Shown: positions 8,118 through 26,907 of the stretch, piece after piece
Layout: each line of letters begins with the position of its first letter
How positions within the stretch are numbered: position 1 is the stretch's first letter
Assembly: GCA_027532905.1 (NCBI GenBank)
Contig: JAPZUA010000001.1
Span: forward strand, 1,111,950-1,175,949
DNA: 64,000 nucleotides
Direction: 5' to 3'
From: Magnetospirillum sp.
Lineage (GTDB): Bacteria; Pseudomonadota; Alphaproteobacteria; CACIAM-22H2
Program-made: the position numbers and the translations under genes
Notes under the pieces: model-generated
Seen by the model: only the letters and a program-made list of their open reading frames with translations
What the model was told of the DNA's origin: nothing
Database searches by the model: none

Positions 8118-8444
8118 ATGTCGAAAGCCGAATGGGGTTTGAAGCGGACGTGCCAATCGTGCGGTGCGCGTTTCTACGACCTTACGAAAAGCCCGATCGA
8201 GTGCCCGAAATGCGGTGCGGAATACGATCCGGAAGTGCTGCTGAAGTCGCGTCGCGGCAAAGCGCCGGTCGCAGCGCCGAAGCCCGTCCCGGTCCCCGTC
8301 GCCGACGATGTCGACGCGATCGAGCCGGCGGTGGGCGACGAGGCCGAGGAAGAGGATGCGGTCATCGAAGACACCTCGGAACTGGGCGAGGACGAAGAAG
8401 ACGTCGCCGAAGTGATCGAGAACGTGGAAGACGAGGAACGTTGA
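8118..8444 (+). CDS. TIGR02300-family (FYDLN_acid) zinc-ribbon protein with an acidic tail
   Basis: The product begins MSKAEWGLKRTCQSCGARFYDLTKSPIECPKCGAEY and ends in an Asp/Glu-rich C-terminus. The start was reset to an ATG at 8118. The track ORF begins upstream at an alternative codon. Confidence 0.75.
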   Translation: MSKAEWGLKRTCQSCGARFYDLTKSPIECPKCGAEYDPEVLLKSRRGKAPVAAPKPVPVPVADDVDAIEPAVGDEAEEEDAVIEDTSELGEDEEDVAEVIENVEDEER

Positions 8445-8513
8445 CCGCCGCATCGGTTCGGCATAAATAACCGCCTGCCGCCAGCGGGACCCACCCCGCC
8501 GGCCACGAATTTC

Positions 8514-8589
8514 GGGGCCATAGCTCAGCTGGGAGAGCGCCGCAATGGCATTGCGGAGGTCAGCGGTTCGATCCCGCTTGGCTCCACCA
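8514..8589 (+). tRNA. tRNA-Ala (anticodon GGC)
   Basis: A 76-nt cloverleaf: acceptor stem GGGGCCA/TGGCTCC with the G3:U70 alanine identity pair. The anticodon loop contains GGC. TTCGATCC is the T-loop, and CCA is encoded. Confidence 0.9.
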
Positions 8590-8597
8590 TATAGAAC

Positions 8598-8631
8598 AAG
8601 GGCTTAGCTGGAAACAGCTAGGCCCTTTTTC
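8598..8631 (+). terminator. Rho-independent terminator of tRNA-Ala
   Basis: The hairpin aagggcttagctg-gaaa-cagctaggccctt is followed by TTTTT. Confidence 0.8.
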
Positions 8632-8813
8632 ATTTGATTCTACCACCGTTCTACCACGGCAATGGCAAGATATGGCACTTTACGGCATGGCATTGAGCCC
8701 AAAAATCTTCACTCTCGAGAGTCGGGGCGGCTCTCAGCGACCTGCAAAACGTTCATTTTATACCTTGGCGAAATTTTCTCTGCGCATACATTGATTTTTG
8801 AAGGAGATTGATT

Positions 8814-9011
8814 ATGGCAGCCCGTGAAAATTACAGAGCTCATCAAGCCGCTGAATATCTTCAGATTTCTGCGAGTAGTTTAGCTAAGCGTCGCGTCGCG
8901 GGGTCTGGCCCCCAATTTTGCAAACTTGGGCGGATCGTCGTTTACCGGCGTGTCGATCTCGACGCTTGGTTAAACGAAAATTCCCGCGAAAGCACCTCGG
9001 AAGCGTCATAG
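8814..9011 (+). CDS. AlpA-family phage transcriptional regulator/excisionase-like HTH protein
   Basis: The motif YLQIS.SSLAKRRVAGSGPQFCKLGRIVVYRRVDLDAWL is typical of AlpA/Xis-like MerR-type HTH proteins. An AGGAGA ribosome-binding site precedes the ATG at 8814. The gene lies directly 3' of the tRNA. Confidence 0.75.
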   Translation: MAARENYRAHQAAEYLQISASSLAKRRVAGSGPQFCKLGRIVVYRRVDLDAWLNENSRESTSEAS

Positions 9012-9519
9012 TAGGTCCGGTCCTCGGTCGCGGAGTAGGCGGGAGCGACGCCGACGGCCCGCGCGCCCTTTTGGGAACGCCGTAGCGGACCGATGGCGGC
9101 TCGGGCGGCTACCGTCGATTCGTGGGTTAGCGTTGGTTTGCAGACGCCCCCCATAAACCTGAGGACCACCGATGACCGGTGAGATCATGAACCTTCGGCT
9201 GCTTTTGTCTATGAATCGGCGCTTAACTTTGACCACGGCATTAATATGAAGGATCCAAAGGACCTAAGCGCAGATCCGGTTGTTTAGAGGGCTCACGATT
9301 GAACGCTGAATAGCCGTCGATTATACTCCGACCAAGATCAAACGCTTTCATTCTGATGTCCCTACGCGCCCACTGAATTGAGCGCCGCTTATAATTGTTT
9401 CTCGAAGGCAGTTTTGTTAAGCCCGGCCAATTTCGCAAGATTTATCGCAATGCTCGCAGTGTCACTGCTTGATGTGCTGGTGGGACGCTGGCGCGGGTAC
9501 CCCCCTCTAAGTCTGCCAA

Positions 9520-9783
9520 CTATTTCTTCTTATTGTGAGCGCGTATGCCGATGGGGCGTGTCCCGACGGCACCACGATCTGCCGGCAAATCGCTGGGCTT
9601 CAACTTTTCAATCAATAGTTCGACCGTCGCGGGGATTCGGCGGATGCCTTGCTCCCAGTTTTTCAACGTACCTTTCGCAACGCCCAAGACCTCGGCCGCT
9701 TGCGCTTGCGTGAGATTGTTTTTGGTACGCCAGCTATAGAGCGCGTCGGGACCGAAATTTTTCATTCCCTCAAAATACGTCAT
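9520..9783 (-). CDS. XRE-family HTH transcriptional regulator
   Basis: The sequence LTQAQAAEVLGVAKGTLKNWEQG is a classic XRE helix-turn-helix. The gene is divergent from the 9881 gene. Confidence 0.8.
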   Translation of the reverse strand: MTYFEGMKNFGPDALYSWRTKNNLTQAQAAEVLGVAKGTLKNWEQGIRRIPATVELLIEKLKPSDLPADRGAVGTRPIGIRAHNKKK

Positions 9784-9811
9784 TGGTGCCTCGAGTGCGA
9801 GAGAAAATCCT

Positions 9812-9839
9812 TTACAAAGACACCAATGGTGTCTATAAT
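9812..9839 (+). promoter_or_regulatory. Sigma70-like promoter with embedded palindromic operator
   Basis: TTACAA (9812-9817), then 16 nt, then TATAAT (9834-9839). The spacer is exactly the palindrome GACACCA-A-TGGTGTC (9819-9833). This sits 40 nt upstream of the 9881 start, and the divergent XRE gene starts at 9783. Confidence 0.6.
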
Positions 9840-9880
9840 GCTTTCATCATCACGCTGCATCCCACAAATCGGAGACCGTT

Positions 9881-11242
9881 ATGTCCGACGACATCCCCAT
9901 CGCCGACCCGCTCGATTCCAAGATTTGGACGGCTGATCCCAGCCGGAGCTGGGATATCCGCCAATCGCGGCGCATCTGGAACTTTGTTTTGGCGTCTTGC
10001 CCTCTGATCGCGGCGCATCTAAGGGAACGAGGACCCAACGACATCGAGCCGGATCTGTTCGCGGATCTCGCGGTGCGCGCCTCCCGCGCCAAACTGTCGG
10101 ATGATGTCGTCGGGTCGCTCTGGTTTCTGGCCGCAAGCCGAAGCCATGTCGCTGCGGCGGGGGCCCTGGTTGGCATGCTCGCCCAATCTTCAAATACCAC
10201 GTCAATATCGATTGAAAGGCGACGGGCGATCCGGCATTGGCGCCGTCGTTTGGCGCGGGTCGAGGTGCTGGACGATGCAAAGCAATTGACGGCGGAGTTT
10301 TCTGCTTTGGTCAAATCTGCTGATCTGGACGAGAGACTTGCGGCCGATCGGTCTCGGCCCGAGTCCGGTCGCGAGCTGATGGTCCTGGCGCCAGCACTGG
10401 CGGCTGAGATCGAGCAGGATCGCGAGATAAAACCCTACAAGAGCCTCGGCGAAATGATGCGGCTTTGGCGACCGAAGACCTCATTCGACGTGCTCCAGAA
10501 AGTTCTGCACTTGGAGTTTCCGCATCTTGGCAGTGCTATCGATACGGTATTGGGTTCGGTTATGTCGGGGGGTGCCGATCGCGAACCGCCGGTGTTGTTG
10601 GTCGGCGCCCCCGGCCTTGGCAAGGACGCGCTGTGGCGGCGTGCATGCGAGCTTACGGGGCGGCCCTTCGTGGAATATGAGCTTGCTGGGACGGCCGATT
10701 CCCGCGCGCTCAAGGGCACCGCACGCGGCTGGTCTTCTCGGAATCCGAGCTATCCCGCCCAGGTCGCGCGGCGGCTGCAGGCGGCAAATCCCTGCGTTCT
10801 AATGACGGAATTGGACAAAGCGGGCGGGAACCCCGCGAATGGATTGATCGTCGATACCCTGCTCGCATGGCTGGAACCCGGATCGCGTGGACATTGGTTC
10901 GACGAGGGGCTGGGCGTGCCGTTGGATTTGAGCCGATTTACCTTCGGGTTCTCAGCGAACCGTATAGATCCGCTGCCGGGTCCGCTACGAAACCGGCTGC
11001 GGATCATCGCGATCAATGCGATCGCGCCGACACATGTCGATCTCTTGCTCGCCAATGTTCGTCGTCGCCACGCGACGCAACTGGGCGTTCGCGAGGGCGA
11101 CGTTCCCGAGCTCGACAAGCGGGTTGTTGCGCGGCTGCGTCAGGTCGCGCGGCAAGGCGGGTTGAATCTGCGGCTGCTGGAGCGGGTCATGCGCGCCGCT
11201 TTTCCTGAGCGGTCGCAAGCCATTTTCGCAAAATTCCATTAG
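9881..11242 (+). CDS. Lon-type AAA+ module protein with no protease domain and a non-canonical Walker A/B (GKD / TE), plus a novel N-terminal domain
   Basis: Residues about 230-450 align motif by motif with the Lon AAA+ module. GAPGLGKD matches GPPGVGKT. G..D...L.G..R.W.S..P matches the Lon [21 protein letters not shown] signature. NPCVLMTELDK matches NPLFLLDEIDK. FSANRIDPLPGPLRNRL matches ATSNSMNIPAPLLDRM. The N-terminal 220 aa are helical with no recognised domain. There is no Lon S16 protease region. A GGAGAC ribosome-binding site is present. Confidence 0.7.
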   Translation: MSDDIPIADPLDSKIWTADPSRSWDIRQSRRIWNFVLASCPLIAAHLRERGPNDIEPDLFADLAVRASRAKLSDDVVGSLWFLAASRSHVAAAGALVGMLAQSSNTTSISIERRRAIRHWRRRLARVEVLDDAKQLTAEFSALVKSADLDERLAADRSRPESGRELMVLAPALAAEIEQDREIKPYKSLGEMMRLWRPKTSFDVLQKVLHLEFPHLGSAIDTVLGSVMSGGADREPPVLLVGAPGLGKDALWRRACELTGRPFVEYELAGTADSRALKGTARGWSSRNPSYPAQVARRLQAANPCVLMTELDKAGGNPANGLIVDTLLAWLEPGSRGHWFDEGLGVPLDLSRFTFGFSANRIDPLPGPLRNRLRIIAINAIAPTHVDLLLANVRRRHATQLGVREGDVPELDKRVVARLRQVARQGGLNLRLLERVMRAAFPERSQAIFAKFH

Positions 11243-11254
11243 GGGCAGACCCCA

Positions 11255-11647
11255 ATGACACCGCAATCAATCTCAGTCGCGGTCACTTGGCCGAGTGATG
11301 TCTATCGCGAGTTCAAGGTAACTGTAACCAATGCCGCGTCTAAACAGGAAGTACCGAGCTACATTGACGCGGCTGCGAGGGGCATTAAAGAATGCGACAG
11401 CGTTCCGCGTACGGCGATCTTGAGACCGGCGCCACGCGTTTCGGTGATCCGACTTGCCGCCGATCCGACCTGCCGGTGTCAGATCAGCCGGGTTTCGAGC
11501 CTCGCGCCAAGAGGAAATTGGTCAAGGTTCCGGTTTGCGGTGAAGTGGGTGTCGCGCCTTGTCGCTGTGTGCGATGGATATACCGCCATGCGCGACTCGG
11601 TAATTCCGATTGCGGCAACACTCGCCGCGTTTTTTTTCATCAGATAG
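11255..11647 (+). CDS. Hypothetical protein, a possible partner of the Lon-like gene
   Basis: It starts 13 nt after the 9881 gene stops, on the same strand. The first 50 residues look protein-like. The second half is Arg/Cys-rich and may be an over-extension or a frameshift. Confidence 0.3.
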   Translation: MTPQSISVAVTWPSDVYREFKVTVTNAASKQEVPSYIDAAARGIKECDSVPRTAILRPAPRVSVIRLAADPTCRCQISRVSSLAPRGNWSRFRFAVKWVSRLVAVCDGYTAMRDSVIPIAATLAAFFFIR

Positions 11648-12273
11648 TCTTGCTGTGACTCGGCTTCCAAGGTTGACCCCGCCATTTCTACATCTATCAA
11701 ACCGATACTCCATAGAGTCTGGAGCGTTTCGGCGAAAAGAATCAACGTTAAAGCGTTCCCCTCTAGACCATCGAATCTGCGCTTAGGTCCATTGGCTTCT
11801 GCTTATTTATGCCGGGGTCAGATTTCAACGCCGGTTCACAGGCGGAAGCACTACAAAAAAATGGCTGCACTCGTCACTCAGATATCGGCCGCCAGCACCG
11901 GCGACGTTCGGCGAGATACAGCCTCTCAAACCGGTCGCCGGGATGCAGTAATCTCTCATTCGGCTTGGTTCAAAAACTCGATCAGGTCACTTGAATAACA
12001 TCGTTAATGCCCCGTCAACGCGGAGGTTTCGGCATTTAGGAAACCGGCGATGCATCCGAAAAAGAAGCTAGGCCTGAAAAGTCGATTTACTAGGATGATC
12101 TGCGGTGCGAGCGACCGACGTAAATTTCGTTGTTATGATCGACGACCTCGAAACTGCGGTGGCTATTGATCCTTTGTCGTATTGCGCACCGCGGCCGTAA
12201 GCTGGACCGAAAGTCGTTGGAGACGATACGCCTGATGGCGGTCGAACGGGTTCGCGATGGCGAAGCAGCGACG

Positions 12274-13527
12274 CTAAATAGGCAAGTCATTGGGATTCAG
12301 CTTAGGCTCAAGCTCTGCAGACCAAGAAAATGGTACCCCAATTGCGGCTACGTTCAGATCTGGGCGTCCATATCGCTGGAACGTTTTGGGATCGGAGTGT
12401 CCCATCATTGTGAGTCGGTCGCGCAGGGACAGATTGGTATCTTTGAGCAACGAAGCAAATCGATGGCGCAATACACGCGGCGTTACGAGTTTTCCGTCCT
12501 TTCCAAATATTTCACTCATGATCGCGGTGACCCTGTCATAGGCCTTCTTTGGCGACTTGACCCGCACAACCCGTAGGCCCTCCGGACCGGTCGCCTGCAA
12601 AAGCGCTCTAGTCCATGGCGCATCAGCCTTTACGGTAATACGGCGAACGCCAAGGCCAACATCTTTTTCTTTGCGGACCTTGACTGGCCGCAACTCGATT
12701 TCAACCAAATTGCAGCCTGGTGATCGGATGCTAACACCAAGAGCGATTTCTTCTGGGCGTGCGCCTGCCGCAAGCATAATACAGATTGGCAAATACCAAA
12801 TGCCGTGCGTGCGAGCGGCCTCCTCTAATTTGAATTCCCAATTTGGCGGAAGTCTTTTTAGACGTTCCCAGTATCGCTTTCGAGCGGGTGCCTTTTTGTA
12901 AGATGGTTGGGCAGACGTATCAAAAAGCGTTTTAGTAGCCCAAACGCAAAATTCGAGTGCCTGCAGCGCATATTGCCGCTCCCCATCATCTGACTTGCAG
13001 CAAATGTTGTTCCAATAATCCAAGGCGCTAAAAATCGCGCATTCGAGCCAGATGAGGCATGCCGTATGAACTTTCTTTCGATGCCCACCTGAAAATCTTC
13101 GGAGGTCGAATCCGTCGGTTCTTGAGCACTCCGCCTTATAAATTTTTTGGTAGGCGCGTTCTGTTTGCGCTGTTCGCACTGCATCAATTCGCGATCGCCA
13201 TTTTTCGCCGATAATATTTTGCGTTTGCGTCAAATGATCGATTGCGATTTGTATTCTTTCGAATTCTTGGTCTATCAGTTCGCCGTGTCGCTTTTCGCTT
13301 AAGAAAGAATGGTACTCTTCTGGCTCAAGCGCGTCGGCCGCGAATTCATATTCGAAGTATCGTCTTTCCTCGCCCCCCTCCCTTATTCTTCCCGGGGGAA
13401 GATAAGAGGGGGAAGATGATGTTGGAGATAGTGTAGGCACTTGGGCATGCGCCCGGGTTGAGCCCACCGAAGCGAGACCGCTAGATGCGGCGAGAAGCGA
13501 TGATCCTATTTTATCGGTATTGAACAT
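12274..13527 (-). CDS. Tyrosine recombinase / phage-type integrase
   Basis: The C-terminal catalytic region carries R...HxxR (LRHRFAS)...MGHSD...Y (FQRYGR) motifs. The N-terminal 200 aa are atypical. This is the distal end of the tRNA-Ala island. Confidence 0.75.
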   Translation of the reverse strand: MFNTDKIGSSLLAASSGLASVGSTRAHAQVPTLSPTSSSPSYLPPGRIREGGEERRYFEYEFAADALEPEEYHSFLSEKRHGELIDQEFERIQIAIDHLTQTQNIIGEKWRSRIDAVRTAQTERAYQKIYKAECSRTDGFDLRRFSGGHRKKVHTACLIWLECAIFSALDYWNNICCKSDDGERQYALQALEFCVWATKTLFDTSAQPSYKKAPARKRYWERLKRLPPNWEFKLEEAARTHGIWYLPICIMLAAGARPEEIALGVSIRSPGCNLVEIELRPVKVRKEKDVGLGVRRITVKADAPWTRALLQATGPEGLRVVRVKSPKKAYDRVTAIMSEIFGKDGKLVTPRVLRHRFASLLKDTNLSLRDRLTMMGHSDPKTFQRYGRPDLNVAAIGVPFSWSAELEPKLNPNDLPI

Positions 13528-14268
13528 GGTGGCTCCTTTCCTCGGCGACAGAAACAGCGCCGTGTTAGAGACAACATATTAGTTTTGATCGGAATGGGCG
13601 CTTATACCGCTTTTTTTCGTACTACCGGCATTCACTTTTTTTCAAAAGCCCGGGCTCCAGGTCGGCATCTACGGCATCAGATAAATGGCCGCCAGACCAT
13701 TAAGTCACTAAAATCTTTATAATTAACACGGCAGCAGCTAGCCGGACGGCGTCGCGGATCGTCGTATATGCCTCGGAGCCTGCAATCTCCCCGTTGCCAA
13801 GATTGATGAGACCACCGTCTTGTATCCCGATGATCGTGTCCCCATCGGATCTGGTCATTCCAAGAAGTGTCTTGATGCCGGACGCGGTCGGCGTGTTATC
13901 GATATTGGCGACACACTGCACGTCATTGCTTTAGCCAGAATTAAGGGATCCCAATATTTACATTATAAATGTGTAAATTTTAGTATCTTTGTCGGCCCCG
14001 CCTCTAAATCGTGTCTCTTACATGTCCTTCGAAAATGTTGATTTCGCCGTCCAGTTTGAGTGACCTGACTGAAGTACTCCACTGGATCTGTAGAAATCGG
14101 CAAATTCGAACACTTGTTGTCTGTGCTATTTTGCCAGAAGACCCGCAACGGCATCACTTGATTAAGGTTGGACGGAGATCGAGGTGCGCATGTTACGAAT
14201 TTCTTGTGGCGTTAGACTTCACGAACTAGGAACCAGACGAGCTCCAACACAGACATGTCGACAGTCCA

Positions 14269-14985
14269 TCAGCCGCCAGCACCGCGCGCCGTTGCCAACC
14301 CTGCAAGATGATGCAGAACTTCGTCAGCTTTCATGACGTCGGCGTACTTGTGATGCAGATCGAAAAGGTTGATCTTGTGGATCAGATCCGAGCGATCGAA
14401 GGTGCATTCTTCGACGACCGAAATGTGATATCCGCCCGAATAGCCATCAATACAAGTTGCTCTGACGCAGCCTGAAGTGCTCTCGCCGCACACGATTAGG
14501 CTGCGCACCCCAAGCATCGTAAGGTGCGATCCCAGAGGTGTTCCGGCGAACGCCGAGGCGCGCTGTTTGACGATGACGACATCTTCCGGGGCCGGCGACA
14601 GTTCGGGATGGATTTCGTAGTCGTCAGGCGATGAAGTCATCCGCTGCCGACGTGTCGGTTCGACCCCGCCTGGCTTGCTTAGTGGACGCGCATCCGACGT
14701 GCTGTAGAAAATGGGGATGCTTGCGCGTCGGGCTACCGCAAGGAGCCTCTTTGTTGGGTCCAGCGCATTCCAGGCGTTGATTCCGCACGAACTGGGCCAC
14801 TGCGCCTGAACGTCGACTGGCGGCTTGCGGCCGCCACGATATGCCGAGTTATAGAGATCGACGGCGATGATGGCAGGGCTCGGCCCGACGAACGTGCGAC
14901 GGGCGTAGGCACTGTAGATCGTGAGCGTGTCGCGATCGACCACGTCTTTCCAGCAGTGGTCTTCAAACGCTTCGATTTCTGCCAT
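14269..14985 (-). CDS. Isochorismatase-family cysteine hydrolase (amidohydrolase)
   Basis: The motif IVCGESTSGCVRAT with a catalytic Cys is typical of the isochorismatase/CSHase/maleamate-amidohydrolase family. Confidence 0.75.
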   Translation of the reverse strand: MAEIEAFEDHCWKDVVDRDTLTIYSAYARRTFVGPSPAIIAVDLYNSAYRGGRKPPVDVQAQWPSSCGINAWNALDPTKRLLAVARRASIPIFYSTSDARPLSKPGGVEPTRRQRMTSSPDDYEIHPELSPAPEDVVIVKQRASAFAGTPLGSHLTMLGVRSLIVCGESTSGCVRATCIDGYSGGYHISVVEECTFDRSDLIHKINLFDLHHKYADVMKADEVLHHLAGLATARGAGG

Positions 14986-24948: not shown

Positions 24949-26907
24949 TCACGAGGCAGCGCCACCTTCTCGAATGTCGCGAGCATTGGCTTTTGAGGCC
25001 CATTTGATCAATGCGACCATCATGGCCGTCGGCACCACAATGCTAGCAACAAGAGCAGGCGTTCCGGGGACAAGAATGATCAGACCGCCGACAGCAATCA
25101 GAATCCTGATCGGCCAGTGTATCCGCGACTGCCGAACCGTGCCAGCGATTGCGTAGCTGATAGCCAGGACACTGATGAATGCGGCGACGAGTGTCACGAC
25201 GACATTGCCCATCGCACCCTCGAGCAGGAGCTCAGGTCGAACGACGAAAAGAAAGGGCAGGAGGAATCCGGCATAGGCAAGACGGCAGCCGTAATATCCA
25301 ACGCGGTCCGCGTTGGCGCCCGCCAGTGCCGCAGCGGCCATCGCAGCGACCGCCATCGGCGGCGTAATCGCCGACATGCACGCGAAAACCAGCATGAACA
25401 TGTGCGCCGTCATCACCGATAGCCCGTAATCGGCGATCAGCACGGGCGCCACCAACGCCACTCCCATGATATAGACGGCAGCCGTCGGCAGCCCCAAGCC
25501 GAGTATGACTAGCAAAACTGCTGCAGCAACGATCACCACCGCAAAGTTCCCGCCGGAAACGGCCGATAGGATGAAGCTGAACTTTCCGACCAAGCCGCTC
25601 ATGTCGAGATACCCGATTGCCATGCCGGCAGCGGCACACGCAGCAGTCAGTCCGCTGATGCGAACAGCAGTCTCGATGCAGCATTCGAGCAGTGCGCTGG
25701 GCGTTACCCAGAGATTTCGATTGGGAGTGAGATAGCTGGACAAAATTCCGATAACTGATGATCCCGCGGCAACGATCGTCGGCGAGTATCCCGCTTCAAT
25801 CAGGTAAAGCAACGCGAAGACGGGGAAAATCAGACGGAAGTCGCGCTTTAGGACGTTGGGCAACGACGACACGTCGCCTTCCTGAAGCGCTCCCTCGCGC
25901 AAATAGCTGGATTCATGGTGTGTGATCGCCAGTACACCGAGATAGTAGAGAATGGCGATGCCGGTTGCGGCCAGTGCGATCGAGCGATAGGGAATCCCCG
26001 TGTACTCGACCATGAGAAACGCCACGGAGCCCATTACCGGTGGCAAGATGGCGCCGCCGCAGGATGCCGCCGCTTCAGTCGCTGCGGCACGCGTAGCAGT
26101 CGCGCCACTGCGGCGCATGATGGGAATCGTGATCGGGCCGGTCGTCATGACGTCGGCGGTGGGGCTGCCGGAAACCGATCCGTAGATTCCGCTTGAAACG
26201 ACACACGCCTTTGTTGCACCGCCTTTTGTTCTCCCCACGAGTGCGCTGGCCAGATCAAAGAAGAACTGACCCCCGCCCGCACGATGGTAGATGCTGCCAA
26301 AGAAGACGAACAGGAACCCATAGGTCGCGGCGACCTCGACGGTCACGCCAAACAGTGCATCTTCTGATACGGTTATCCGACGTGCGTAATATTCCAGACT
26401 TATCGGGGTGTGCCCCAGCGCGCCGCCAAGATGGTGGCCGTACGCCACATACAAGAGCAGGAGCACGCATGTACCGGTCAAGCCCCAGCCGACAACTCGA
26501 CGACAAGCTTCGATGACGAAAACCGTCATGACCACGCTCATCGCAACTTCTAACCTGGATACTCGCGTGATGCCCTCGATCATCGTGTCGTAGAACCGCC
26601 AATTGAAGATAAAGTAACTACATGCGACTATTGCACCTACCGTCCACAACCAGTCGATCCAGTTTCGGTCGCTCCGACCGGTATGTGCCGAGGTCGTAAG
26701 AAAAACGATCGGAAGCATGCCGGTCAGGAATATAGCGGTGTGGAGATGCAGGCTGGAAATCGAGAAGAAGGCGTATCGAAAGATGTATACCGCCATTAAT
26801 ATTGAAATTATCGCGACCAGTATACGCGCGGGACCATCCAACTCAACCGAACGACCTTCGTTGATATAACGGAACACCAATTGACGGAGTGAAGTCGCGC
26901 TGGTCAT
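24949..26907 (-). CDS. TRAP transporter fused permease subunit (TAXI-type, DctQM-like fusion)
   Basis: The 652-aa product is polytopic. It is adjacent to the TAXI substrate-binding protein. Confidence 0.8.
   Translation of the reverse strand: MTSATSLRQLVFRYINEGRSVELDGPARILVAIISILMAVYIFRYAFFSISSLHLHTAIFLTGMLPIVFLTTSAHTGRSDRNWIDWLWTVGAIVACSYFIFNWRFYDTMIEGITRVSRLEVAMSVVMTVFVIEACRRVVGWGLTGTCVLLLLYVAYGHHLGGALGHTPISLEYYARRITVSEDALFGVTVEVAATYGFLFVFFGSIYHRAGGGQFFFDLASALVGRTKGGATKACVVSSGIYGSVSGSPTADVMTTGPITIPIMRRSGATATRAAATEAAASCGGAILPPVMGSVAFLMVEYTGIPYRSIALAATGIAILYYLGVLAITHHESSYLREGALQEGDVSSLPNVLKRDFRLIFPVFALLYLIEAGYSPTIVAAGSSVIGILSSYLTPNRNLWVTPSALLECCIETAVRISGLTAACAAAGMAIGYLDMSGLVGKFSFILSAVSGGNFAVVIVAAAVLLVILGLGLPTAAVYIMGVALVAPVLIADYGLSVMTAHMFMLVFACMSAITPPMAVAAMAAAALAGANADRVGYYGCRLAYAGFLLPFLFVVRPELLLEGAMGNVVVTLVAAFISVLAISYAIAGTVRQSRIHWPIRILIAVGGLIILVPGTPALVASIVVPTAMMVALIKWASKANARDIREGGAAS

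Follow-up and report, generated by a model that had tools for sequence, protein, structure and literature searches.

A candidate repressor-operator switch between divergent genes for an XRE regulator and a protease-less Lon-type ATPase in Magnetospirillum sp.

The window analyzed here is a 64-kb stretch of a Magnetospirillum sp. genome (contig JAPZUA010000001.1, 1,111,950 to 1,175,949, forward strand), and all coordinates below are positions in this window. We studied a control region of about 100 bases (9766-9880), which separates the divergent genes xre (minus strand) and aaa (plus strand); a small open reading frame (ORF) follows aaa. O1 and O2 are our proposed names for two operators, and P_aaa and P_xre for two promoters. 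The original prediction of a divergent XRE / AAA+ control region was borne out, as an HTH_3 ORF was found on the minus strand and a 453-amino-acid (aa) ORF at 9881 on the plus strand. The genes and the control elements of aaa are as follows.

9520-9765, minus strand: xre gene, 81 aa counted from Met7, Pfam HTH_3; the longest ORF reaches to 9783 and has 87 aa, with an MTYFEG extension (CAT at 9781-9783).
9811-9816, plus strand: -35 hexamer of P_aaa, TTTACA, from the promoter scan; TTGACA or TTGAAA at the equivalent place in all 15 relatives read.
9818-9834: proposed operator O1, a perfect 17-bp dyad, AGACACCA-A-TGGTGTCT, which fills the promoter spacer.
9834-9839, plus strand: -10 hexamer of P_aaa, TATAAT, from the promoter scan; TATAAT-like hexamers in all relatives.
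9871-9874, plus strand: Shine-Dalgarno sequence GGAG, 6 nt 5′ of the ATG at 9881; kept in the related loci L001 and L018.
9881-11242, plus strand: aaa gene, 453 aa, with a helical N-terminal domain (1-230) and a Lon-type AAA+ module (236-440).
11255-11647, plus strand: small ORF, 130 aa, 12 nt past aaa; fast-evolving, with a hydrophobic C-terminus.
11611-11637, plus strand: terminator-like hairpin with a T-run at the end of the operon, found by scan.

The arrangement TTTACA-17 nt-TATAAT matched 11 of 12 consensus positions and was the best promoter site within 8500-13000, where the scan returned six sites (2.3 expected). A near-consensus sigma70 promoter directed to the gene at 9881 is present as first described, but its parse as TTACAA-N16 was one base off, the relatives having TTGACA-N17 in the TTTACA register. 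Transcription from P_aaa is predicted to start near A9846.

The spacer contained GACACCA-A-TGGTGTC at 9819-9833, a perfect dyad, and one more pair (A9818/T9834) makes it 17 bp; the palindrome of the original prediction was thus real but two bases short of its true length. The last base of O1 is the first T of TATAAT. The exact 15-mer occurs once in the window. Perfect 8+1+8 palindromes were found three times against 1.8 expected from first-order Markov shuffles, the other two lying in the tRNA anticodon stem and inside a 652-aa ORF, and an intergenic stretch of 97 nt would hold such a palindrome with a probability of about 0.0016. By itself the palindrome lacks significance at the scale of the window; its count is near chance, so the argument has to come from its position and from the comparison of loci. 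The palindrome in the 652-aa ORF, CCAACGCG-G-TCCGCGTTGG (CCAACGCGGTCCGCGTTGG) at 25299-25315, illustrates that chance examples exist in this GC-rich window.

Fifteen distinct related loci with DNA were recovered from Magnetospirillum, Azospirillum and Tagaea metagenome-assembled genomes (MAGs) and from unassigned metagenome contigs. They formed four clades by ATPase identity to the window: clade A with 81% (close relatives) and 42%, clade B with 47-49%, clades C and D with 36-38%. The trio of a divergent XRE gene (81-91 aa), a Lon-type AAA+ ATPase gene and a small ORF was kept in clades A-D, and xre and aaa were divergent in all 15 relatives with DNA and in two contigs known from gene calls only. 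In all loci read, a TATAAT-like hexamer lies 17-18 nt past a -35 hexamer in front of the ATPase gene; the -35 reads TTGACA, or TTGAAA in clade D. The best or only intergenic dyad with at least 6 of 8 pairs begins 6-7 nt past the start of the -35 in eight of the 12 loci scanned, which is the spacer register of the window; in a ninth locus (L022) a 6/8 dyad in this register stands beside a 7/8 dyad 9 nt downstream. The dyad and the XRE recognition helix of each clade were as follows.

Clade A: O1 AGACACCA-A-TGGTGTCT; recognition helix AKGTLKN.
Clade B: O1 nTACnnCn-T-nGnnGTAn; recognition helix SAGAWRN.
Clade C: O1 GTAACCCA-A-TGGGTTAC, perfect in L016; recognition helix SLSGFRK.
Clade D: O1 CTAGTATT-T-AATACTAG, perfect in L020; recognition helix TVHTVRT.

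Watson-Crick arm pairs numbered 88 of 112 over 14 loci tabulated with a dyad in this spacer register, compared with 61.6 +/- 3.7 in column-preserving shuffles, and none of 5000 shuffles reached the observed number. Two or more complementary pair types occur at seven of the eight arm positions; position 2, for example, is G:C in clade A and T:A in clades B and C. The recognition helix differs from clade to clade in step with the dyad, and the flanking XRE residues are invariant. This symmetric co-variation, tracking the recognition helix, argues for a cognate dimeric repressor-operator pair, and neither chance nor an RNA hairpin predicts it. Together with the dyad symmetry kept in register over four clades, it supports the palindrome as a probable operator inside the spacer of a strong promoter.

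On the xre side of the control region we found three further features.

9772-9777, minus strand: putative -10 of P_xre, TATTTT, separated from the Met7 ATG by 6 nt.
9775-9791: proposed operator O2, ATACGTCA-T-TGGTGCCT, 12 of its 16 arm positions being identical to O1.
9796-9802: TGCGAGA block, invariant in six clade-A loci and altered in L029.

The original prediction described a partial half-site, ATTGGTG (9782-9788), over the xre start codon. The sequence is present, but it is part of the complete second operator at 9775-9791, which was kept in all seven clade-A loci read. The centres of O1 and O2 are 43 bp apart, about four helical turns. O2 was scored at -41 to -43 bp in the window, L001, L018 and L005, matching the O1 of its own locus at 12-14 of 16 positions, and was recognized by eye in L026, L027 and L029; it coincides with an invariant block of the clade-A alignment. 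In L027 O2 is itself a 7/8 palindrome, and the ACGTCA seen in the left arm of O2 recurs in the right arm of the L005 O1. Both operators fit the half-site ACRYCA, and ACRYCA-N-TGRYGT with at most one mismatch gave three matches in the 64 kb (1.5 expected), two of which are O1 and O2.

The xre start had also been placed at 9783. Met7 at 9765 is probably the true start: the other clades start at the position of Met7, and L018 and L029 have stops between both ATGs. In these two loci the ATG inside O2 opens mini-ORFs of 4-5 codons, MTYLE* in L018 (about 416-440) and MTYF* in L029 (about 2270-2290), ending at or just before the real xre ATG; the codons of MTY are the TGACGTAT arm of O2. With the start at 9765, O2 would therefore lie within the xre promoter and not on the start codon. 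The proposal of TATTTT-N6-ATG comes from conservation, the TATTTN-N6-ATG spacing being identical in seven of seven clade-A loci. It suggests that the xre mRNA is leaderless and that O2 sits in the spacer of P_xre much like O1 in that of P_aaa. The TGCGAGA block would stand where the putative P_xre has its -35; read on the minus strand as CTCGCA, it matches TTGACA at three of six positions. In clade B (L003, L006, L009 and L012) we found TATAYA-7 nt-ATG and GATAAT-8 nt-ATG, and the aaa and xre mRNAs both look leaderless there, with start codons 7-8 nt past TATA-like -10 hexamers. The clade A aaa gene differs from that of clade B in having a 35-41 nt leader with the GGAG Shine-Dalgarno sequence.

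The XRE protein matched Pfam HTH_3 with an E-value of 1.9e-8 (34.6 bits against a cut-off of 23). Its AlphaFold2 model has four helices, with a predicted local distance difference test (pLDDT) score of 82-86 over residues 11-60, and a tail predicted to be disordered from about residue 57 (pLDDT 43-59). The nearest folds found by Foldseek were HigA2, C.Kpn2I, C.AhdI, Aca1, HipB, ImmR and P2 C, with E-values of just 0.02-0.2, and Aca2 and ClgR were also among the fold matches; the root mean square deviation to HigA2 was 1.0 Å over 51 residues. MqsA and HigA2 also matched the helix-turn-helix (HTH) domain by sequence. Named antitoxin families of NCBIfam stayed below their cut-offs (MqsA 27 bits against 61.8, HipB 15 against 79, PezA 14 against 290), and PADLOC gave weak generic HTH matches only (RmrA 6e-5, Control_protein 1e-3). 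The C-terminal tail (residues 57-81; 9520-9600 in the window), LKPSD(L/Y)PxDxGSxGxRP(I/V)G, was invariant over all four clades and is better conserved across them than the DNA-reading helix, which varies. By resemblance the tail could be a GRP-type minor-groove arm, and could equally be a handle for the ATPase.

We consider it probable that XRE, as a dimer binding both O1 and O2, represses the strong P_aaa from O1 and serves its own regulation from O2. P_aaa would be intrinsically strong, having near-consensus hexamers and an optimal 17-nt spacer that are kept in all clades. When an XRE dimer occupies O1, RNA polymerase would be shut out, because O1 spans the whole spacer and the first -10 base, and aaa and the small ORF would stay off until repression is lifted. 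In clade A, XRE on O2 in the spacer of the weak P_xre would give negative autoregulation, and binding at O1 and O2 is possibly cooperative. Repression rather than activation is favored by the near-consensus hexamers, the optimal 17-nt spacer and the nearest folds, which are dimeric operator-binding repressors. Reading and comparing the sequences gave P_aaa, O1 and O2 with their conservation, the symmetric co-variation, and the correspondence of operator and helix variants; from these we infer XRE as the binding protein, repression as its effect, the transcription starts and cooperativity.

Several points weigh against this account. The symmetry of O1 is not strict, with 5/8 pairs in L005, L006 and L012 and, by eye, 4/8 in L027 and 5/8 in L029. 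The clades share ancestry, and clades A and C have an inner CCA-N-TGG core that also occurs in L003 of clade B; the four clades are therefore not fully independent tests. A second operator was searched in clades B, C and D and was not found, leaving O2 to clade A only. The consensus scan did not detect a sigma-70 promoter for xre, the match being poor, and the sigma-70 consensus rules are those of E. coli, while the host is an alphaproteobacterium. The account of the switch is throughout a deduction from sequence.

The aaa product matched Pfam AAA at 8.7e-8. Its match to NCBIfam lon (TIGR00763) covered positions 356-559 only (1.7e-19), with 70 bits against an equivalog cut-off of 608, and a Lon structure in PDB matched from Walker A through the lid (5.6e-19). 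The AlphaFold model (pLDDT 81) retrieved LONP1 and bacterial Lon with Foldseek at 3e-12, and its matches in BFVD were Lon proteins of giant viruses. The S16 protease domain (Lon_C) had no Pfam match and the protein ends at 453, just past the AAA lid; there was likewise no PF02190 match for the N-terminal LON substrate-binding domain, and residues 1-230 are all-helical without a family match. The earlier description of the gene as Lon-like is thus true of the AAA+ module, but the protease domain is absent. We ruled out identity with the LonA protease, as the S16 domain and the Lon N-domain are both missing and the score is 70 bits against 608.

Like LonA, the protein aligns over its AAA+ module (236-440) from Walker A to the lid and has an aromatic pore-loop position (W284, aligned with the Lon Tyr), the sensor-1 Asn and the Arg finger; unlike LonA, it has no S16 domain or LON/PUA N-domain, and it carries GKD instead of GKT in Walker A and TE instead of DE in Walker B. 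A protein-translocating ATPase is plausible, because the pore-loop aromatic residue, the sensor-1 Asn and the Arg-finger positions are invariant. In the window Walker A lies at 10616-10627 (GKD, D249) and Walker B at 10796-10810 (TE, residues 309-310). In every XRE-linked ATPase of all four clades, Asp replaces the Thr/Ser after the Walker A lysine; in Walker B, where readable (12 proteins of clades A and B, and protein P0019), Thr, Asn or Ser replaces the Asp before the catalytic Glu. In 124 other members of the superfamily the pair is canonical, GK[ST] and DE. The changes in Walker A and Walker B strictly co-occur, as though the two motifs had exchanged their Mg2+ ligands.

The full-length ATPase family comprised 17 clusters among 5.8 billion proteins, the protein of the window being identical to one from a Magnetospirillum MAG, and the XRE family comprised eight clusters. 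The superfamily of protease-less AAA modules is large, with 13,510 matches, 1,474 of them below 1e-30. For aaa and the small ORF, PADLOC-DB v2.0.0 gave no match at E <= 0.1, and PHROGs, Pfam and NCBIfam gave a generic AAA / Lon-AAA signal only. No relative was found by tblastn against phages or by a scan of viral contigs, and the N-terminal fusions of longer superfamily members contained no informative domain. Seven plasmid relatives, annotated as "AAA family ATPase", were 27-40% identical over the AAA module only; three of the seven had an HTH neighbor, and none carried functional information.

An ORF of 93-131 aa was found at -4 to +15 nt from the aaa stop in 11 of 12 loci searched (the contig of L001 ends), and on one contig known from gene calls only a 151-aa ORF was called after aaa. 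The motif L-x-A-D-P-x(1-2)-C/K-C/R is common to the small ORFs of clades A and B, and the third-position bias is weak (18, 21 and 38 differences at codon positions 1, 2 and 3). No family match was found for the small ORF, which is probably coding and fast-evolving. The terminator-like hairpin, with a run of eight T, overlaps its final codons, and the C-terminal FFF is encoded by the T-run.

The genes lie in a low-GC island, of which the window contains these other features.

8514-8589, plus strand: tRNA-Ala(GGC), at the left edge of the island.
8808-9011, plus strand: HTH_17 (AlpA / excisionase-like) gene, Pfam 7.2e-7; PHROG "excisionase and transcriptional regulator".
12274-13527, minus strand: atypical tyrosine recombinase gene, Pfam Phage_integrase 2.3e-4, below cut-off.

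GC content drops from about 0.67 to 0.46-0.60 after 8600 and remains under the level of the left flank beyond 14300. The marks of a tRNA-linked integrative island are present, namely a tRNA at the edge, a compositional shift and a tyrosine recombinase. Rfam found nothing beyond the tRNA in 8400-14500, and no second copy of the tRNA 3′ end (attR) was found in the window within three mismatches. Inverted repeats of about 92-110 nt, 76-80% identical (9200-9309 and 11742-11850) and sharing a 16-nt identical core, GGACCTAAGCGCAGAT, bracket exactly the xre-aaa-small ORF module; they were absent from all related loci, and the ORFs overlapping them had no Pfam or family match. A further segment, 11863-11968, is about 74% identical over 106 nt to 3262-3367 of L003, beside an rve-family transposase gene, and may be the remnant of an insertion-sequence end between the operon and the recombinase.

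The recombinase of the window is 29% identical (1e-25) to a 548-aa ORF after aaa and the small ORF in L006 (8159-9805). Homologues of 29-32% identity (1e-14 to 1e-25) lie near the module in clades B and C (L006, L015 at 10192-11346, and L016), and the atypical tyrosine recombinase is therefore a recurrent fourth neighbor; the recombinases of the remaining clades were otherwise unrelated. Tyrosine recombinases were found close to the module, at most a few kb away, in the window, L006, L009, L015, L016, L020 and L022, and Mob_Pre relaxases in L020 and L029. In L006, L020 and L022 the recombinase or relaxase genes are co-directional and downstream of aaa and the small ORF, and in L015 and L016 the recombinase comes after xre. 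Defence-type genes also adjoin the module: a type II system of anti-phage signaling by cyclic oligonucleotides (CBASS) in L012/L013, ubiquitin-like E1/E2/JAB and ImmA-HTH genes in L003/L004 and also L022, type I restriction-modification, HipA_2 and HNH genes in L026, and a SNF2 helicase with an MmeI-like methyltransferase in L029.

Our best guess is that the switch keeps silent the "early" operon of a small integrative or mobilisable element, encoding a protein unfoldase of the Lon type that lacks the protease, together with a small protein that is possibly membrane-associated; in some relatives this operon continues into relaxase and recombinase genes. The original prediction preferred a toxic or defence effector. 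For the module this would mean a stand-alone anti-phage or abortive-infection system in which a toxic unfoldase with a small membrane protein is tightly repressed. We regard this as a possible though less favored purpose. The CBASS, ubiquitin-like, restriction-modification/HipA_2/HNH and SNF2/MmeI-like neighbors in relatives speak for it, and a strong promoter that is fully occluded is the design expected for a dangerous product. Defence and mobile islands co-localise anyway, however, and neither aaa nor the small ORF is matched by PADLOC models. No recognizable nuclease, pore or NADase effector was present, and relatives in phages or viral contigs were not found. In nine of the 13 distinct contexts a recombinase or relaxase is found no more than a few kb away, and its co-directional position past aaa in three loci (L006, L020 and L022) resembles an element's own operon. 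Since PADLOC models cover neither aaa nor the small ORF and no phage relative was found, we kept the defence effector and the early operon as alternatives. The genomic context fits both equally well, and the switch itself does not depend on the purpose of the module.

A more speculative form of either purpose, which we think rather unlikely, is that the module is an undescribed mobile-element switch or defence module in which the unfoldase, with its swapped Mg2+-ligand residues (GKD, TE), strips its own repressor off O1 and O2 by means of the invariant tail LKPSDLPxDRGxxGxRPIGV. Leaky expression of aaa would then amplify itself to an all-or-none burst out of the near-consensus promoter.

With regard to the control region, XRE might bind O1 and yet activate P_aaa, or act dually, in the manner of MerR or of the C-proteins of restriction-modification systems, which are activators at low dose and repressors at high dose. 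A site located in the spacer is indeed known from MerR-family activators, C.Kpn2I and C.AhdI were among the nearest folds beside weak PADLOC Control_protein matches, and the unequal quality of O1 and O2 is reminiscent of C-box pairs. The MerR mode, however, requires an over-long spacer of 19-20 bp and weak promoter geometry. In every clade of this module the hexamers are near-consensus and 17-18 nt apart, and the protein is an XRE, so MerR-type activation is unlikely. C-proteins are co-transcribed with their target and have sites upstream of the -35, but here the genes are divergent and a restriction enzyme is absent. Activation or dual action is in our judgment improbable. We also rejected a C-protein circuit as the identity of the system: the module has no endonuclease or methyltransferase, and the dyad is inside the promoter spacer of the divergent gene.

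Slightly less probable still is that the dyad is the site of another protein, such as the island recombinase, an AlpA-like HTH protein or a host factor, with xre merely adjacent. Recombinases and the HTH_17 gene are close by, but only xre, aaa and the small ORF stay beside the dyad across loci; the recombinases of the clades are unrelated, the HTH_17 gene is usually absent, and the dyad sequence shifts together with the XRE recognition helix. That the palindrome arose by chance, or is an RNA or DNA hairpin (terminator or attenuator) without an operator role, is very improbable despite the near-chance palindrome count (one of the three lying inside an ORF): transcription of aaa is predicted to start only downstream of the dyad, which is therefore not in the aaa RNA, the 1-nt loop of the dyad is unable to fold as drawn, a T-run does not follow, and its position and symmetry are kept in four clades despite sequence divergence.

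A close likeness was found with the immunity switches of temperate elements (P2 C/Cox, lambda cI/PRM-PR and ICEBs1 ImmR/Pxis), where a small Cro/C1-type repressor is divergent from a strong early promoter that it occludes and dyad-symmetric operators overlap promoter elements. The lambda cI mRNA from PRM is leaderless, and the xre mRNA is probably leaderless too. Recombinase genes share the small island in both cases, XRE has fold matches to ImmR and P2 C, and the recombinase after xre in L015 and L016 recalls immR-immA-int of ICEBs1. Unlike these switches, the xre module lacks both a second repressor of the Cro or Cox kind and a protease of the ImmA type, its first early gene is a Lon-type AAA+ ATPase missing from them, and it has one operator per promoter, unlike the tripartite lambda OR and OL.

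Aca1/Aca2 and CapH of CBASS are similar in that a small dimeric HTH protein on an inverted repeat in or next to the -35/-10 damps a very strong promoter of a mobile element or defence system. The aca genes, however, are co-transcribed with their targets, while xre is divergent; CapH pairs with the CapP protease, while the xre module has no partner protease; and the conserved disordered C-terminal tail is unique to XRE. The antitoxins of type II toxin-antitoxin systems (HigA2, MqsA and HipB) are the best relatives of the HTH domain and also use palindromic promoter operators. Such pairs are nevertheless co-transcribed, and the antitoxin neutralises the toxin by binding it directly; xre, by contrast, is divergent from aaa, whose product, a 453-aa AAA+ ATPase, does not have a known toxin fold. 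A type II toxin-antitoxin system was rejected, as xre and aaa are divergent in all relatives and the antitoxin-family scores are under their cut-offs. The actinobacterial ClgR, also an XRE-family regulator of AAA+ machine genes (clp/lon) and a fold match, activates the genes of housekeeping proteases and is itself a substrate of Clp; apart from the HTH fold, no sequence relationship was seen. No paper describing an XRE regulator together with a Lon-AAA-only ATPase turned up in a literature search.

The control region itself is an ordinary, textbook off-switch design. It offers a repressor-operator pair ready for testing, and its natural variants in specificity (four operator "alleles" with four recognition helices) could be used for studying the evolution of HTH specificity or as a set of orthogonal parts. 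Its main value is the handle on the cargo: rare Lon-derived ATPases that lost the protease and have swapped Walker A/B metal ligands, and that, on small integrative islands and often next to defence systems, are always accompanied by the XRE repressor and a small ORF. The xre-aaa-small ORF module is rare and worth a modest follow-up, and knowing the switch would give a way to turn the operon on experimentally.

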